IMG/VR virus record: IMGVR_UViG_3300028833_000055
Span: 110,446 to 174,445 of that record
Length of the DNA stretch: 64,000 nucleotides
Strand: one strand, 5' to 3'
DNA from: a virus
Taxonomy: Duplodnaviria > Heunggongvirae > Uroviricota > Caudoviricetes
Each line of letters begins with the position of its first letter. Positions within the stretch are counted from its first letter, which is position 1. The translations under genes were made by a program, and so were the position numbers. Below the pieces are notes generated by a model. That model was not told the origin of the DNA and searched no databases. It saw nothing but the letters and a program-made list of their open reading frames with translations. Shown here piece after piece: positions 12,370-38,573 of this stretch.

Positions 12370-12684
12370 ATGGAAGATATAGAAAAAAATATCAACGAAT
12401 GTGACGGAGTACCTGGTGGTGCAACACCAATGAATGTAGGTGGAATGGGTGACATAATGTTACCGGGTTCCGGTTCACCGGGTTCCGGTGATATTCCATT
12501 ACCTGGTCCGACGGGAGGAGTTTATCTACAAGTACAACCCTTCGACCAGTTCATCAAGAAATCAAAATGGAAGAAAAGGAAGAAAAGATTCAAGGGAAAA
12601 ACCACACCAAACTCTGACATATATTCCTATGTGGATGATTTCAAGACTTATGCAAAAAGAACAGAAAAAAATCTAAATACTTGA
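12370..12684 (+). CDS. Gly/Pro-rich late protein
   Basis: 104 aa beginning MEDIEKNINEC; late promoter at 12335-12343. Confidence 0.6.
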   Translation: MEDIEKNINECDGVPGGATPMNVGGMGDIMLPGSGSPGSGDIPLPGPTGGVYLQVQPFDQFIKKSKWKKRKKRFKGKTTPNSDIYSYVDDFKTYAKRTEKNLNT

Positions 12685-12686
12685 TT

Positions 12687-13982
12687 ATGGGAGTATTACT
12701 TAATTTGACACAAGAGTATTTCGGAAAGAAACCTAGAACGGAAGATATGGTTATACATATGGATGGTGTTGAAACCATTGAACATGATTTTATAGACAAG
12801 CGTGGAAGACAACAATATGCTTCATACCGTATCAAGGACACACATACATATTCCGACTATTTTGTACCGGAACCATTGGTGAAACTGGTAAAGATTATTA
12901 TACAAAGGGACGGAAACAAATGTGACCTGAATTTTATTGATGTGTCCAATGTAAAATCCTTCAAGGGGTTGTTCAAGAACTCTGATTTCGACGGGGACAT
13001 TTCGGATTGGGATGTGAGAGAAGCGGTAAGTATGGAGGAAATGTTTATGGGTTCAAAATTTAACGGAGATATTTCCAGATGGAAAACACCTAAATTGAAT
13101 AATATGTACCATATGTTTAAAGAATCCCAATTCAACGGAGATATAAGTGAATGGGATGTCTCCAGTGTATATAGTATGATAGGTTTGTTTGATGGTTCCC
13201 AATTTAACCAGGATATTTCAAAATGGAAAACATCCAGTGTGAGGTTTATGGATAGTATGTTTGCAGATTGTCCGTTTAATGGAGACATAAGCGAATGGGA
13301 TGTCAGCGGGGTGACAAATATGACATTTATGTTTTATAAGAACAAGTCTTTCAACAAAGACATTTCAAAATGGAAAACCGGTAATGTAAATGATATGCAA
13401 TCTATGTTTAGTAAATCCATATTCAACGGAGACATAAGCGAATGGGATGTCAGTGAGGTGACAGATATGAATAATATGTTTTATGACTCTCTTTTCAATA
13501 AAGATATATCAAAATGGAAAACCGGTAATGTAAATGATATGAGTGGTATGTTCCATTATTCCAAATTCAACGGAGACATAAGTGAATGGGATGTCGGTAG
13601 AGTAAAGGATATGGTCAGTATGTTCTCACATTCTCAATTCAACGGAGATATAAGTGGATGGAATGTTCAAAATGTGGAAAGTATGCATTATATGTTCTCC
13701 GACTCCAATTTCAATAAAGACATATCCGGATGGAAAACCATAAAAGTAACCAAAATGACAGGTATGTTTTCTAACACTCCTTTCAATAAAGACATAAGCG
13801 GATGGAATGTGGAAAAAGTAAAGGATGTCTCCTTTATGTTTTTCCGTGCAAAGGAATTTAACAAAGACCTCTCAAGATGGGAGTTTGAAAATCTGGAAAA
13901 TGTGGATGCGGCATTTTCCCAATCACCACTTCAAGATAATCCACCCAAATGGTATTTGGATTTTTACGAAAAACAACCATAA
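12687..13982 (+). CDS. BspA/DUF285-like surface repeat protein
   Basis: About 13 tandem ~24-aa repeats of the form FN[G/K]DIS[E/K/G]W[D/K/N][V/T]xxVxxMxxMF. Confidence 0.85.
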   Translation: MGVLLNLTQEYFGKKPRTEDMVIHMDGVETIEHDFIDKRGRQQYASYRIKDTHTYSDYFVPEPLVKLVKIIIQRDGNKCDLNFIDVSNVKSFKGLFKNSDFDGDISDWDVREAVSMEEMFMGSKFNGDISRWKTPKLNNMYHMFKESQFNGDISEWDVSSVYSMIGLFDGSQFNQDISKWKTSSVRFMDSMFADCPFNGDISEWDVSGVTNMTFMFYKNKSFNKDISKWKTGNVNDMQSMFSKSIFNGDISEWDVSEVTDMNNMFYDSLFNKDISKWKTGNVNDMSGMFHYSKFNGDISEWDVGRVKDMVSMFSHSQFNGDISGWNVQNVESMHYMFSDSNFNKDISGWKTIKVTKMTGMFSNTPFNKDISGWNVEKVKDVSFMFFRAKEFNKDLSRWEFENLENVDAAFSQSPLQDNPPKWYLDFYEKQP

Positions 13983-14008
13983 ATAACTTATCAAAAATAT
14001 AATTTATT

Positions 14009-15787
14009 ATGAACTATTACAATAAAGGATATATGCCGTTGAACGAAAGCAAGAAGGCCGTTGATATACAAGTGGTTTTTCTTAGTTCAAGGGCAGAAAA
14101 GACAACAAAGAGTTCAAACTCTATGTTTTTCTTCGAGGATGCCGCAAAGAAAGCTGGTCTCAAAATGGTGACGATAGACCCGAGTTCGTCCGTGATAAAA
14201 AAGAACAGCGAGGATTCATACAGTGTAATCGAGGAGAATGGTGGAAGCAAGAAGACATATGTCTTGAAACCGTCAAATACAATAGTCGTTCCGAGAAGAA
14301 CCGTATTGAAAAACTCTGAATCGAAAGAGTTTATGCAGGACTTACAGACATTCGGTTTCTTCTGTCTGAACACACTTGATTCAATAGAGACTTGTGAAGA
14401 CAAATTCTTGACATACAAGAAACTTAAAAACTCCGGTGTTCCTACTCCGAAGACAACGGTCATCACATCTTCATCTATGAACAAGCTCGATGACAAGGTT
14501 CAGACCATCGGAGGAAAATTCCCGATAGTATGCAAGATACTGAACGGAACACAAGGCGTCGGTGTGTTTATCATCGACTCTATGATGAGTCTCCGTTCAA
14601 CACTTCAGACTATGTTCAAGATTTCACCGAAGTCCGATATTATCCTTCAAGAGAAGATTGATTCCGACTACGACCTGAGAATACACGTTATGTACAATGG
14701 CTTTGAAAGAATGACTTCCGGTCTTGATGGTTTCGAAATAATCGGATGTATGAAGAGAAACCAGCTCGCCGGTGACTTCAGAAGCAACTATTCTCTCGGT
14801 TCAACCGCCGAAAAGGGAACATTGACACCGGAACAGGAGAAAATCGCAAAGATGGCCGCAAAGGCTACGGGTTGTCGTTGGTGTGGTGTAGATTTAATTG
14901 TTTCGGGAACAACAAAGCAGCCTTATGTAATAGAGGTTAACTCATCACCGGGTACAAAAGGTATAACCACCGCCGCCGGTGACGATGTTGTCGGAACTCT
15001 GTTCAATATGTTCAAGGACTTCAAGTACACAAAATATGAATCCGAACAGATTGGAAGCTACGAGACAATCACAATAAAGGACATCACAAAGGAGAATCCG
15101 AACCTTGATGTTGCAATAAGGTTTGATTCCGACAAGATGTTCACCGAACTTGAATGTTCGTCAGTCAACGCAAAGGACGAGGATGTTTCATTTGTTTTCA
15201 ACGGAGTAACATATAACAGGGAACTTGTCGGATTGAAAAAGAACGAACCTATGGTCGAGTTGAACCTCAAATTCAACGGAACAATATACAAGAACGAACT
15301 TGTGATATTGAAACAAATCAATGACAATATCAACAAGAACCATATGGTCGGAGGTTCAAAGCTCATCAACCGTATAGCCAACAACGCCGTCATCATAGAC
15401 CAGCCGTTCTATCTGACCGACAACACAACGGGTTTTGATGTTCCAAAGAAACCGATAGACGAATCACTTCTTTTCGAAAGCAAACTGGATATGGCGTTTA
15501 AGGTCAGTAAGAACGAAGTGAATCTTATGAACCTCAAGACTATGTTAAACACATTCGTAAGCGGTACGAGAAACGAATATGTGAAGGGAAAGTTCGGAAT
15601 AGACGCAACGGATTCAAACAACTGGGAAATCAAGTATAACAACCAGCCTTTCCTTGAGTGTAAAAACACAGACATCAAGTTTATGCACAATTCGTTCCCA
15701 TATGAAATCGCTTGCAAAATCGCCGGTGTAATAGAATCCATACTTCCTACGGAAGTCGATATGTCGGTATATCCGGAAAACGAATAA
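14009..15787 (+). CDS. rimK: RimK-family ATP-grasp ligase with C-terminal degenerate protease-like domain
   Basis: CEDKFLT, PKT, KILNGTQGVGV, LQEKI..YDLRI, FRSNYSLG, GVDLI, VIEVNSSPG; late promoter at 13978-13985. Confidence 0.85.
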   Translation: MNYYNKGYMPLNESKKAVDIQVVFLSSRAEKTTKSSNSMFFFEDAAKKAGLKMVTIDPSSSVIKKNSEDSYSVIEENGGSKKTYVLKPSNTIVVPRRTVLKNSESKEFMQDLQTFGFFCLNTLDSIETCEDKFLTYKKLKNSGVPTPKTTVITSSSMNKLDDKVQTIGGKFPIVCKILNGTQGVGVFIIDSMMSLRSTLQTMFKISPKSDIILQEKIDSDYDLRIHVMYNGFERMTSGLDGFEIIGCMKRNQLAGDFRSNYSLGSTAEKGTLTPEQEKIAKMAAKATGCRWCGVDLIVSGTTKQPYVIEVNSSPGTKGITTAAGDDVVGTLFNMFKDFKYTKYESEQIGSYETITIKDITKENPNLDVAIRFDSDKMFTELECSSVNAKDEDVSFVFNGVTYNRELVGLKKNEPMVELNLKFNGTIYKNELVILKQINDNINKNHMVGGSKLINRIANNAVIIDQPFYLTDNTTGFDVPKKPIDESLLFESKLDMAFKVSKNEVNLMNLKTMLNTFVSGTRNEYVKGKFGIDATDSNNWEIKYNNQPFLECKNTDIKFMHNSFPYEIACKIAGVIESILPTEVDMSVYPENE

Positions 15788-15855
15788 CAACAATACCAAA
15801 TAGAGACTCGAACAAATGAAAATGGACCGGAGACACCGGTCCATTTTCATAAATA

Positions 15856-16031
15856 ATGATATGGGATGTAACTGTAATAAAAACGATTCAATTCCTCTTT
15901 CTGTAAAAAAGGAAAAGAGGAGAGGCCTTAAAGAGAAGATAAATGAAATAAAGAAACTCTGGAAGGAAAGTAAAACTGTTGAAACATCGGGAAGCGTCAC
16001 TGTAAACAAAGATGAACTTGGATTCAAATGA
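15856..16031 (+). CDS. small Cys-containing basic protein (start revised from 15816)
   Basis: A hairpin at 15819-15847 and a late promoter at 15847-15855 overlap the track start. The product begins (M)MGCNCNK. Confidence 0.5.
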
Positions 16032-16969
16032 AGAGAATAAAGACATATGAGGAATTTATAAACGACAATCTAACAGAATCATCAAAGAGGAACGGTAAGG
16101 AAGTTATTGGTTTCAAGGAAGTGGTGGAAATTGTCGGTATCGGAAATATGAAGGCGAAATTCGACACCGGTAATACCGCCTATTCGGCAATCATAGTGCA
16201 GGACTATTATGAAAAGGACGGCAAGGTGAAGTTTGAAATCAACAAAAAGGAATACGAATATCCCGTTGAAAAGCATGTCAGAATATGGCATCACGGAAAA
16301 TCTACGGAGAGACCTGTGATAAAGGTTGATTTGATTTTCAACGGAACGACATACAAGGATGAACTTGTTGACTTGAAAATTTCAGATTTGACCGGAACGA
16401 AAAATTACAGAAGCAGGATGCTCATTTGCAAGAAGTTTATGGAAAAGGCCAATGTTCTCATTGACCCGAGCAAGGACTTCAAGCTCACCGATGAGAAGGA
16501 TATTGACAAACCGAAAAAGAAAAAGAAGAAAATAAACGAAGGTCTTGAGGAAAACCCCGTATCTATGACCACAAAAGGTACGAGTGACGCCATAGACATA
16601 GATTTCAAGATTGGAAGCGATATAATCGGAGGAGCGATTATAACATTCCAGTATATTGACGGTATTATAGATGAATATTTGGAATCCGTAGATGATTTCG
16701 ATGAAAGCGTTTTCAGAAAATTCGATAGTAACCAGAAACTATACAACCTTGAAGACTTCTGGATAAACAAGGATTTCAGGGGAAAAGGTTATTCAAAACT
16801 CTGTCTTGAAAGAATGATGGAGAAATACGGAGACAAACAAATGGTACTCCGTGCCTTTCCGGATGGAGGGGTAGATGAAGACACCCTTGTAAGAATATAT
16901 AGTAGACACGGTTTTGTTGTGTTACAACCCACAATGAACGATGGAACCATTATGGGAAAATTATTATAA
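16028..16969 (+). CDS. RimK-associated aspartic/Zn protease-like domain fused to a GNAT acetyltransferase
   Basis: KAKFDTGN...ERPVI...MLICKKF in the N-terminal half; INKDFRGKGYS...YSRHGF (GNAT motif A) in the C-terminal half. Confidence 0.75.
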   Translation: MKRIKTYEEFINDNLTESSKRNGKEVIGFKEVVEIVGIGNMKAKFDTGNTAYSAIIVQDYYEKDGKVKFEINKKEYEYPVEKHVRIWHHGKSTERPVIKVDLIFNGTTYKDELVDLKISDLTGTKNYRSRMLICKKFMEKANVLIDPSKDFKLTDEKDIDKPKKKKKKINEGLEENPVSMTTKGTSDAIDIDFKIGSDIIGGAIITFQYIDGIIDEYLESVDDFDESVFRKFDSNQKLYNLEDFWINKDFRGKGYSKLCLERMMEKYGDKQMVLRAFPDGGVDEDTLVRIYSRHGFVVLQPTMNDGTIMGKLL

Positions 16970-16999
16970 AAAAGAGTGAGGTTTTCCTCACTCTTTTTT
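16968..16999. terminator. bidirectional intrinsic terminator
   Basis: AAAAAGAGTGAGG-tttt-CCTCACTCTTTTTT between convergent genes. Confidence 0.85.
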
Positions 17000-17393
17000 A
17001 TTCTTCCTCATCACAATCCTCTTCATCATAACAGCAATCAAGTGCTTCACTGATTAAAGAAAATTCTTCAAAACCAAGAACTCTATTTTCAGAAACAGAA
17101 GCTGGTGTGTATATGGCATGTTCCTCGATAACACCCATAAACCTTTCTTCTGCAAAACATCTGAAAGATTCCTTTTCCATATCGAAATATGTAACAAAAC
17201 CTTCTCTTGGTGGTCTCTTTGTACCCGACTTTGCGTCAACCGTACCTATGATAGCGGCGATGATTTTTGGATTTCTCGTTCCGAAAGCGATTCTTGTTGA
17301 ACCGTCCTTTTTTTCGAAAACAAACTTAACTATATCATCACGTAACATTGCTATAAAACTCGATATCGAGACCATTCTTCCCGTTTCTTCCAT
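16998..17393 (-). CDS. SH3 beta-barrel (WYL_2/DUF2693-like) protein
   Basis: IVKFVFEKKDGSTRIAFGTRN...VTYFDMEKESFRCF; late promoter at 17415-17422. Confidence 0.75.
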   Translation of the reverse strand: MEETGRMVSISSFIAMLRDDIVKFVFEKKDGSTRIAFGTRNPKIIAAIIGTVDAKSGTKRPPREGFVTYFDMEKESFRCFAEERFMGVIEEHAIYTPASVSENRVLGFEEFSLISEALDCCYDEEDCDEEE

Positions 17394-37167: not shown

Positions 37168-37644
37168 ATGTATACCGTTAAGAACTACGCACAATTCATC
37201 ACTGAAATGAAATCTGAAAGGGAGATTGTGAGGGATATAGCGAGACGCCTTTCACACGACAAGGATATAATAAAGTACCTTAACACATCTCGTGCAAAGA
37301 GAAAAATCGGTTGGAGAGAGCTTCTCGCAGACAAACTACACGGAGGAAACCTCGACTACATCAACTATATCACCAAAAATATGGTAGCCGACTACAACCC
37401 TCAGATTACCGGTTACATCAATATTGGAAGGGGTGAAGAAAGCGGTGAAGGTGAAGGTGAAGAATTTAATTTCGATGGTGGTGTTACAAGAATAAACCTC
37501 GCTTTCAAGGAACTGCAAGACAGACTTGACAACATAGAGGATGTTCTTCAGATAGACCCCGAAGAAGAGGAAACTGTGGAAATAACAAAGGACAAGCTGT
37601 CCGTAATACTTGGAGAAGACAGTGACATCGATGAGGAAGAATAA
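37168..37644 (+). CDS. late protein with CTS-like N-terminus
   Basis: Begins MYTVKNYAQFITE; acidic C-terminus DIDEEE; promoter at 37137-37144. Confidence 0.7.
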   Translation: MYTVKNYAQFITEMKSEREIVRDIARRLSHDKDIIKYLNTSRAKRKIGWRELLADKLHGGNLDYINYITKNMVADYNPQITGYINIGRGEESGEGEGEEFNFDGGVTRINLAFKELQDRLDNIEDVLQIDPEEEETVEITKDKLSVILGEDSDIDEEE

Positions 37645-38573
37645 TGAACGAGTATAATAACAAATATAATAAGGATGACGTATTCATCAGGAATATGATT
37701 GTGTGTTTTCTTGCTGAACTAAACAAGAAAATTTTCTACTACAACAGACTTGATAACAACACATTGCAGAAAGTGACGGTTCCCTGTATGTATGCAATCA
37801 CCGGACAGGAGAGGTTTTTAAAGGATGAGTTCTTTTACGACCCAATCAATATGGGTATGGCGATAGGCGACTACGAAAGACTTCCCCGTGTCATCGTCAG
37901 ACTTTCAGGACTGAACATAAACACGGCCGAACAGACGAACAAATACAACCACACCAAGATAGTAAGGGAGTCAAACGGAAAGATGAGAACCTGCTATCTG
38001 AATGTGGAATGGGTTCCCGTACAGTTGTCATTCGACTGTAATCTGATATGCTCGAACAACATAGAACTCTTCAAACTGACGGAATGTATAATCAGCAAGA
38101 TATACAAGAACCCTAACTACTTTAAGGTTGATTTCGGAATGTGCAATGTTGACGCCGCCTTCGAGGGCCCTGAAAACTATTCGGGTCAAGTACCTACGGA
38201 ATTTGGACTGAATGATAAAAAGGAGTTCAGAATGGACTTCTCCATAGAGATGAAATCGTTCATACCGGCGTTTGAACACGGTCTTCTGCTGGGTGAGATA
38301 GACGAAATGCTGGCGAAGATACCGGTTGAAAACGACGGTATAGTTATGTTCAGACCCGACGATTATGGAAATATGGGTATGAGAACCGGCGGTGTACTTG
38401 AAAAATTCCGTGTTTCCGGATATAATTTCTACATACAACCGGCAACACTTCTCTCCAATACACACCAGGTCCCGAGCATTGCACACAACGAGGAGGAACT
38501 GAAGAAAAAGGATTTGAATGAAGACCTCGTTATAAGGTTCTATTACTCTCCCGATGACGATGAGACTGCATAA
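37644..38573 (+). CDS. gp15: tail terminator/sheath stabiliser (T4 gp15-like)
   Basis: DVFIRNMIVCF...VTVPCMYA...ERF...LPR...VPVQLSF. Confidence 0.65.
   Translation: MNEYNNKYNKDDVFIRNMIVCFLAELNKKIFYYNRLDNNTLQKVTVPCMYAITGQERFLKDEFFYDPINMGMAIGDYERLPRVIVRLSGLNINTAEQTNKYNHTKIVRESNGKMRTCYLNVEWVPVQLSFDCNLICSNNIELFKLTECIISKIYKNPNYFKVDFGMCNVDAAFEGPENYSGQVPTEFGLNDKKEFRMDFSIEMKSFIPAFEHGLLLGEIDEMLAKIPVENDGIVMFRPDDYGNMGMRTGGVLEKFRVSGYNFYIQPATLLSNTHQVPSIAHNEEELKKKDLNEDLVIRFYYSPDDDETA

Follow-up and report, generated by a model that had tools for sequence, protein, structure and literature searches.

Two neighboring genes of a jumbo phage from the rumen, open reading frames 1 and 2 (ORF1 and ORF2), on balance probably encode a kit that writes and erases acidic C-terminal tails of proteins and that is packaged in the virion, processed there and probably injected into the next host; its packaging, target and activities are deduced from sequence. 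The genes are located in a 64,000-bp window (the whole stretch of DNA that was analyzed, bases 110446-174445 of a 363,334-bp IMG/VR record judged 96% complete). Few bacterial systems are known to rewrite a ribosomal protein post-translationally; the bacterial RimK/RimB pair, to which the predicted ligase and protease are related, is among them, and what it does in organisms other than Pseudomonas is obscure. RimK copies in phages are abundant: more than 1100 metagenomic homologues of ORF1 (64-97% identity) belong to the present family, and marine T4-like phages also carry RimK.

In the scheme that we favor, the RimK domain of ORF1 would use ATP to add glutamates to Glu-ending C-termini of proteins, and the RimB-type endopeptidase of ORF2 would cut the resulting poly-Glu tails and, as in Pseudomonas, might also stimulate RimK. 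A decayed RimB-like domain of ORF1 would probably serve as a docking or regulatory module. ORF2 would be drawn into the prohead by a T4-type capsid-targeting leader, ORF1 would follow by its own short leader or by binding ORF2, and the gp21-type prohead protease would cut both proteins at hydrophobic-x-Glu/Ser or Glu/Gly sites (in the notation of these sites, the slash marks the predicted cut), freeing single domains. Carried along in the virion, the enzymes would then be delivered into the next host together with the DNA, in the manner of T4 Alt and internal proteins. The likeliest acceptors would be acidic Glu-ending tails, either that of a head-tagged phage protein encoded from window position 37168 or that of host ribosomal protein bS6. 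An initial annotation of the window had proposed a set consisting of a writer, an eraser and an acetylase. The biology of RimB (PMC11957791) supports the writer/eraser part of this proposal, while the acetylase part is a guess. The same annotation had passed over a conserved small gene, the predicted interdomain cleavage sites and a 2008 report of phage genes joining RimK and PF05618, all of which are considered below.

ORF1 is a RimK-type ligase with a decayed RimB-like domain

The predicted organization of ORF1 is as follows.

14009-15787, plus strand: ORF1, 592 amino acids; coordinates exact.
14048-15028, plus strand: RimK-type ATP-grasp alpha-L-glutamate ligase domain, residues ~14-340, with the catalytic set intact (Pfam, PDB profile search and model).
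15041-15463, plus strand: degenerate RimB-like (PF05618) domain, residues ~345-485, ending at a conserved I-D-E/S (profile-profile comparison).
15464-15784, plus strand: C-terminal alpha/beta domain, residues 486-592, of a family that was not recognized (model).

Residues 130-331 of ORF1 matched PF08443 (E 1.8e-30), and the best solved relatives retrieved by a profile search of the PDB were the RimK structures 7qyr, 7qys, 5zct and 4iwx (E 4e-27 for 7qyr). The AlphaFold model of ORF1 matched 7qys with a template modeling score (TM) of 0.85-0.87 over ~320 columns in Foldseek, ahead of LysX/ArgX. Contact residues were placed using the alignment with 7qyr and the list of residues published for Pseudomonas RimK (PMC10092738). 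RimK residues K100, K141, E178, R189 and F210-N213 correspond to ORF1 K132, K176, E215, R224 and F257-N260, while D248, E260 and N262 correspond to D295, E309 and N311. All mapped contacts with ATP, Mg and Glu are present in ORF1 and are invariant across 20 homologues, so the earlier statement that the ATP-grasp motifs of RimK are intact is borne out. We conclude that the identity of ORF1 as an intact RimK-type ligase is secure; its activity is predicted from that identity.

The extension that follows the ligase domain had been described as a relative of the RimK-associated protease with IRFDSD in place of the catalytic motif, and profile-profile comparison agrees with this description. Residues 368-487 of ORF1 align with residues 43-173 of ORF2 (hhalign probability 94%, E 1e-7), with IRFDSD of ORF1 placed on AKFDTG of ORF2, and a pairwise BLASTP comparison of the two proteins gave an E-value of 1e-5. 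The first aspartate of the motif, D373, is at least 90% conserved in the 20 homologues and the next two positions are variable, so that the family as a whole reads D-x-x. ORF1 itself reads D-S-D where the intact motif is D-T/S-G. Judging from these alignments, the RimB-like domain of ORF1 is a decayed relative and not a protease.

The C-terminal domain of ORF1 is modeled with a predicted local distance difference test (pLDDT) score of ~87. A Pfam search returned no match to it and an Atlas search no usable match; its sole match is PHROG 36749, whose function is not annotated. The domain is represented by only 14 representative clusters among 1.8 billion proteins. The final residue of ORF1 is glutamate in 76 of 120 homologues.

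ORF2 contains an active-looking RimB-like protease domain and a GNAT-fold domain

16028-16969, plus strand: ORF2, 313 amino acids; coordinates exact.
16079-16540, plus strand: RimB-like retropepsin domain with D-T-G-N intact, followed by a Lys-rich linker that ends with I-N-E/G (Pfam, family alignment and fold match).
16541-16966, plus strand: small GNAT-fold domain, residues ~172-313, with R-G-K-G-Y-S at the acetyl-CoA position (Foldseek).

The protease part of ORF2 matches PF05618 above the curated cut-off (E 4.8e-7; 30.2 bits with a cut-off of 27). Residues D46, G48 and N49 are invariant in 26 of 26 aligned sequences. The modeled fold matches RloA retropepsins 9g59/9g58 as well as 2pma (TM 0.65, E 4e-6; Foldseek). 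With a predicted retropepsin fold and an intact motif, the ORF2 protease is active-looking, and the view of the initial annotation that this gene joins an intact AKFDTG protease to a GNAT domain holds for both domains, for the second on the strength of its modeled fold. The C-terminal ~135 residues (model pLDDT ~80) match many GNATs, including Naa60, SSAT, AAC(6') and RimL (E 7e-5 to 1e-3, TM 0.4-0.53; Foldseek); Pfam matches to GNAT families are below the curated cut-off (E 5e-4). The expected acetyl-CoA motif is R/Q-x-x-G-x-G/A; R-G-K-G-Y-S of ORF2 has serine as its last residue.

The GNAT fusion is confined to ~16 close clusters. Other relatives have other C-terminal domains or none, and in most of them the protease (~180 amino acids) stands alone. 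Since the fusion is found only in this small subclade, GNAT is not a core partner. A role for it as an acetylase in a glutamylation pathway is a guess. The separate protease gene looks like it doubles as a carrier of variable C-terminal cargo.

ORF1 and the protease are core genes of a clade of T4-like jumbo phages

The source phage is a distant T4-like myovirus. Its T4-like genes include those for the portal, UvsX, a gp41-like helicase, gp47, gp43 polymerase and gp6 of the baseplate. The same genome encodes a gp23-type capsid protein (PF07068, E 8e-30) and, joined to a scaffold rich in xNE[SG] strings, a prohead protease of the gp21 family (PF03420, E 1.6e-11). The nearest relatives of the portal are found in the huge uncultured phages LR756500-4 and in Lak phages, and gut metagenomes of sheep and cattle, from 16 studies, contain near-identical DNA. 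Searches of deposited phages with the locus (megablast) and with ORF2 (tblastn) returned no match.

ORF1 and ORF2 sit in a plus-strand island (12370-16969) within a minus-strand replication cluster. In five related genomes, the identity is 64-85% for ORF1, 66-74% for the RimB-like protease and 79-91% for the portal. UvsX is 72-76% identical in the four related genomes where its gene is intact; in relative G002 it is found in two pieces, 67% and 85% identical. Both ORF1 and the protease belong to the core gene set of the clade, with conservation slightly below that of portal and UvsX. Because both are conserved among relatives, the possibility that the module is a pseudogene or a chance reading of the sequence was ruled out.

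Both proteins have conserved leaders and predicted processing sites

16028-16078, plus strand: capsid-targeting-like leader of ORF2, residues 1-17, ending with L-T-E/S; KTYEEFI compared with KTYQEFI of T4 IPII/IPIII.
14009-14047, plus strand: leader of ORF1, residues 1-13, ending with L-N-E/S, a putative prohead-protease site (family alignment).

The initial annotation considered both proteins to be tagged for the capsid. For ORF2, this is supported by a T4-like leader: compared with the IPII/IPIII leaders from the T4 record NC_000866, it matches six of seven residues of the core, and it is conserved throughout the ORF2 family. The first ten residues of a T4 leader suffice for packaging, with positions 4 and 7 contributing to targeting and positions 8 and 10 to cleavage (PMC9026906). 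In the present genome, an aromatic-leader motif of this type is found at the N-terminus of nine genes, while 1.4 are expected from its frequency elsewhere in proteins. What ORF1 has instead is just a conserved, putatively cleavable leader. Its first 17 residues are nearly invariant in the 20 homologues, with L11, E13, S14 and K15-A17 strictly so, and L-N-E/S is kept in 20 of 20.

LNE/S is also found at residues 50-53 of this phage's capsid protein, where maturation cleavage is predicted. The pattern [LIVM]-N-E-[SGA] is present in the first 28 residues of 13 genes compared with 3.3 expected (P ~5e-5), and it occurs six times in the protease-scaffold protein. Since the proteases of T4, phiKZ and SPN3US cut after Glu (PMC9026906), we take this pattern as a putative maturation site.

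ORF1 contains three conserved sites of this kind, one after residue 13, one after residue 485 and a third inside the last domain, where it is buried in a helix. The sites after residues 13 and 485 lie in segments with pLDDT <50. The second of them, I-D-E/S at residues 483-486, is kept in 19 of 20 homologues and separates the decayed protease from the last domain. In ORF2, I-N-E/G precedes the GNAT domain in a Lys-rich linker (pLDDT <50) and is kept in 14 of 17 sequences with a C-terminal fusion. From these sequences, packaging is a well-supported inference for ORF2 and is less well supported for ORF1.

The two transcription units are preceded by a shared late-promoter-like motif

13978-13985, plus strand: late-promoter-like motif CATAAATA, 30 nucleotides (nt) upstream of the ORF1 start codon.
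15822-15847, plus strand: intrinsic-terminator-like hairpin after ORF1, with a 9-bp stem, a 5-nt loop and a T run.
15848-15855, plus strand: second CATAAATA motif, directly after the hairpin and 5 nt ahead of the start codon of a small gene.
15861-16031, plus strand: conserved 56-amino-acid protein starting with M-G-C-N-C, with its stop codon and the start codon of ORF2 overlapping in ATGA.
16970-16999, unstranded: bidirectional terminator-like hairpin between ORF2 and a convergent WYL_2 gene.

The heptamer ATAAATA occurs 166 times in the genome and is located at most 70 nt upstream of 93 of the 445 predicted genes, mostly as CATAAATA at positions -25 to -35. Genes with the motif at these positions include those for the portal, the protease-scaffold protein and the baseplate wedge, as well as nearly all head-tagged genes. 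As can be seen from the list, the motif stands ahead of both transcription units; the earlier assignment of both genes to the late class thus finds support, and expression of the two units from a shared late promoter motif is predicted. Contigs from RNA libraries of two studies end at positions 15804 and 15853 and restart at 15871 and 15881, at the predicted terminator and promoter, which is a weak hint in the same direction given that such contigs may include DNA.

Since the start codon of the small gene is just 5 nt past the late motif, its mRNA would be leaderless or nearly so. The 56-amino-acid protein aligns with a read-through form, P0110, and with the products of 54-56-codon genes that occupy the same place in relatives L002 and L003; 26 positions of the alignment are invariant, and the start is always M-G-C-N-C. 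Some relatives have an extra gene of 170-181 amino acids between the ligase and the protease. These inserted genes are mutually unrelated and none is present at the locus studied here, so they were set aside.

A head-tagged protein with a fixed Glu tail is a candidate acceptor

37168-37644, plus strand: head-tagged 158-amino-acid protein with an acidic tail ending with D-E-E-E, a late motif at -30 and a capsid-targeting-like N-terminus; candidate acceptor.

Among 120 listed homologues of the 37168 protein (55-97% identical), 120 end with 3-6 glutamates and none with Asp or another residue, while the acidic stretch that precedes the Glu run is variable in both length and sequence. The protein matched no Pfam or PHROG family, and an Atlas search gave just viral hypothetical clusters below a useful score. 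The gene was found in 14 IMG/VR records. All of these records that are at least 85 kb long also hold the ORF1 gene ~25 kb away, as do both records that are 94% complete; shorter fragments are uninformative. Pseudomonas RimB requires ~5-6 contiguous glutamates and leaves ~four (PMC11957791, PMC10092738). The encoded length of the 37168 tail is near these limits, which would fit a tail that is lengthened by the ligase and reset by the protease. The head-tagged protein with its invariant Glu tail offers a concrete, testable candidate acceptor for a phage RimK.

The initial annotation had named three EE-ending candidates, UvsX and the products of the genes at 16998 and 37168. Only the last of these gained support, from its head tag and fixed Glu run. 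The gene at 16998 (16998-17393, minus strand) is the convergent WYL_2 (PF10902) gene; its product has an acidic tail ending with D-E-E-E, and a longer homologue in relative L003 ends with E-E-D-D-E, so the tail is acidic and is not a fixed Glu run. Genome-wide, 15 proteins end with EE, while 2.9 would be expected from the composition. We count this excess as about two-fold and do not rely on it, since K and E are generally frequent at C-termini.

The gene that follows 37168 (37644-38573) matches the T4 gp15 tail-sheath stabilizer (PF16724, E 9e-7). Since this neighbor is gp15-like, the gene of the Glu-tailed protein sits where T4 has neck genes 13 and 14.

Comparison with known systems

The closest cellular counterpart is RimABK of Pseudomonas (PMC7343187, PMC11957791, PMC10092738), in which a ligase and a PF05618 endopeptidase, both with catalytic residues that are kept here, are likewise encoded together and follow a writer/eraser logic for C-terminal Glu tails. 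In experiments, RimB cut poly-Glu tails, bound RimK and stimulated it (PMC11957791, PMC10092738). The present system differs in being encoded by a phage, in the absence of RimA and in its late promoters; its ligase carries an additional decayed RimB-like domain and an unrecognized domain, its protease carries a head leader and GNAT, a small gene lies between the two, and the acceptor may be a phage protein. Another cellular relative, the bacterial RimBK hybrid (Desulfotalea DP2392; common in Flavobacteriales; PMC11957791), also has RimB and RimK in one polypeptide. The RimB part of the Desulfotalea hybrid is proteolytically active, and the protein is cellular and not viral.

Phage genes joining RimK and DUF785 (PF05618) were reported in 2008 in marine metagenomes of the Global Ocean Sampling (GOS) by Monier, Claverie and Ogata, who suggested a role in host translation (PMC2530865). 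YerA41 gp066 and Mosig_00005 of a Pelagibacter phage are likewise RimK proteins with an active-type C-terminal RimB domain. These fusions share with ORF1 the order of ligase then RimB and a T4-like phage setting. They keep F-D-T-G-N and have no separate protease gene, whereas here the fused copy is decayed and a second, active-looking copy is separate. The present family therefore looks like a derived state, in which the active-looking copy has become a separate head-tagged gene. What is new is the split, degenerate arrangement and the Glu-tailed protein; the RimK-PF05618 fusion has been known since 2008. A literature search found no test of any phage RimK. Two proteins encoded near RimK in YerA41 are annotated as structural. 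One of them, gp065, which is beside RimK, was examined and rejected as a RimB-like protein; the other, YerA41_059 (L001:560-904), matches the Thoeris inhibitor Tad6 (PF25188, E 4e-22).

Internal proteins IPI-III and Alt of T4 (PMC9026906) provide the precedent for packaging. The two share the Tyr/Phe spacing of the leader and a Glu-specific cleavage site; both genomes encode a gp21-family protease, late expression, here predicted, is a further likeness, and the T4 cargo includes an enzyme, Alt. Here, a ligase, a protease and an acetyltransferase would make up the cargo, and cleavage would also split the domains of multi-domain pro-proteins. Should delivery by the capsid prove true, a new class of injected enzymes, of a host-takeover or self-modifying kind, would stand beside T4 Alt.

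A looser analogy can be drawn with the tail code of eukaryotic tubulin (TTLL glutamylases, deglutamylases and MATCAP). Shared are an ATP-grasp glutamylase, a tail-trimming peptidase and the presence of a MATCAP-family (PF08014) peptidase in one genome with an acidic Glu-ending tail; beyond the shared folds, the two systems as wholes are not homologous. The phage peptidase is a 639-amino-acid late protein (240354-242273 of the full genome, minus strand; L037:355-2274) with a head-targeting-like leader, DUF285 repeats and a MATCAP-family metallopeptidase domain (PF08014, E 4.7e-14, above the cut-off). As MATCAP trims the acidic C-terminal tail of tubulin, the 639-amino-acid protein may be a further tail-processing enzyme.

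Alternative readings

Several observations weigh against a packaged writer/eraser kit. ORF1 does not have the canonical K-x-[FY]-x-E-[FY]-[IV] leader. The hydrophobic-x-Glu pattern is short, and its use by the phage's own protease is extrapolated from T4, phiKZ and SPN3US. The RimB-like domain of ORF1 is modeled with low confidence (pLDDT 30-40). An attempt to align the sequence of the N-terminal domain of ORF1 with solved RimK gave no match, and this region is covered by the fold match only. Invariant S-R and P-R-R strings are located in it at plausible places relative to the poly-Glu-binding residues S7, R8, S14, R64 and S68 of RimK; in view of the failed alignment, conservation of these Ser/Arg residues is a motif-level guess. 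YerA41 gp066 is listed as particle-associated, and is annotated as structural, on the basis of liquid chromatography coupled to tandem mass spectrometry (PMC7354516). Since the list is broad (63 proteins, including polymerases and ribonucleotide reductase, among many enzymes), it is weak evidence for true packaging.

Other points concern the acceptor. The co-occurrence of ORF1 and 37168 is seen within one clade, and both may be core genes of it. YerA41, Mosig and S-CAM8 all carry RimK, and a search of these phages for proteins ending with EEE found none. Four pattern matches, all in YerA41, were rejected: three have a true stop codon that is not the end of the reading frame and the fourth reads TGG. 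It follows that the Glu-tailed protein is not the general target of phage RimK. An acceptor of the 37168 type would be clade-specific at best, and host bS6 is still a candidate.

The same enzymes might act unpackaged, in the cytoplasm late in infection, to retune host ribosomes through bS6 or to tag phage proteins during assembly, with the N-terminal motifs serving another purpose or with ORF2 alone entering the head. We consider this rather unlikely. Control of host translation is what the 2008 paper proposed (PMC2530865), the RimK genes of Mosig and of cyanophages are located among replication or metabolic genes and not among head genes, and ORF1 has no canonical leader. However, the leader of ORF2 is conserved and is a near copy of that of T4, the conserved interdomain sites fall precisely in linkers, and a late promoter is odd for an enzyme of host takeover if that enzyme does not travel on to the next cell.

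It is very unlikely that the ligase makes a free product, either poly-alpha-glutamate or, together with GNAT, a small N-acetylated peptide. There are pairs of a RimK-like enzyme and an acetyltransferase that make N-acetyl-dipeptides, and a GNAT domain is fused next door; yet this fusion is restricted to a small subclade. RimK does make free poly-alpha-L-glutamate in a reaction stimulated by RimB (PMC11957791), but the closest sequence and fold matches of ORF1 are to RimK proper and not to small-molecule ligases, and a dedicated Glu-tailed protein co-occurs with it.

Two further proposals would extend the packaged writer/eraser kit. The decayed domain of ORF1 could pair with the ORF2 protease as a pseudo-heterodimer that carries ORF1 into the head and controls the protease. 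Retropepsins act as dimers and RimB binds RimK (PMC11957791, PMC10092738), the protease-type domains of ORF1 and ORF2 are homologous, and in YerA41 and Mosig both jobs fall to a single fused active domain. On the other hand, D373 of ORF1 is not strictly conserved (it is N in one homologue and E in another), and we regard the pairing as possible though doubtful. A viral tail code appears unlikely as matters stand. In it, RimK would lengthen the EEE tail of the 37168 protein and perhaps also Glu-ending fragments left by the prohead protease, RimB and possibly the head-tagged MATCAP-family peptidase would trim them, and the polyanionic tails would act in the capsid or in the new host, for example as nucleic-acid mimics or ejection aids. 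If true, it would be the first protein polyglutamylation system to have its writer, eraser and substrate each of viral origin and each packaged.

Neighboring late genes and a second N-terminal tag

12370-13982, plus strand: two upstream late genes, for a 104-amino-acid protein with an I-N-E/ site and for a DUF285 repeat protein; they belong to the same strand island as ORF1 and ORF2.

The 104-amino-acid late protein (12370-12684) has I-N-E/ at residue 10, and the residues that come next, M-N-V-G-G-M-G-D, recur after the site at which the major capsid protein (104652-106385 of the full genome) is predicted to be matured.

A second conserved N-terminal tag, M-G-[IV]-L-[LK]-N-L-T-x-E-Y-F, is present on many late proteins, several of which are DUF285 repeat proteins. 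Genes with this tag include the one just upstream of ORF1 (12687-13982 of the window) and, at full-genome positions 23894, 44155, 46103, 47745, 67914, 69363 and 200834, among others, further genes of this phage. The 181-amino-acid product of the extra gene of relative L003 bears the same tag.

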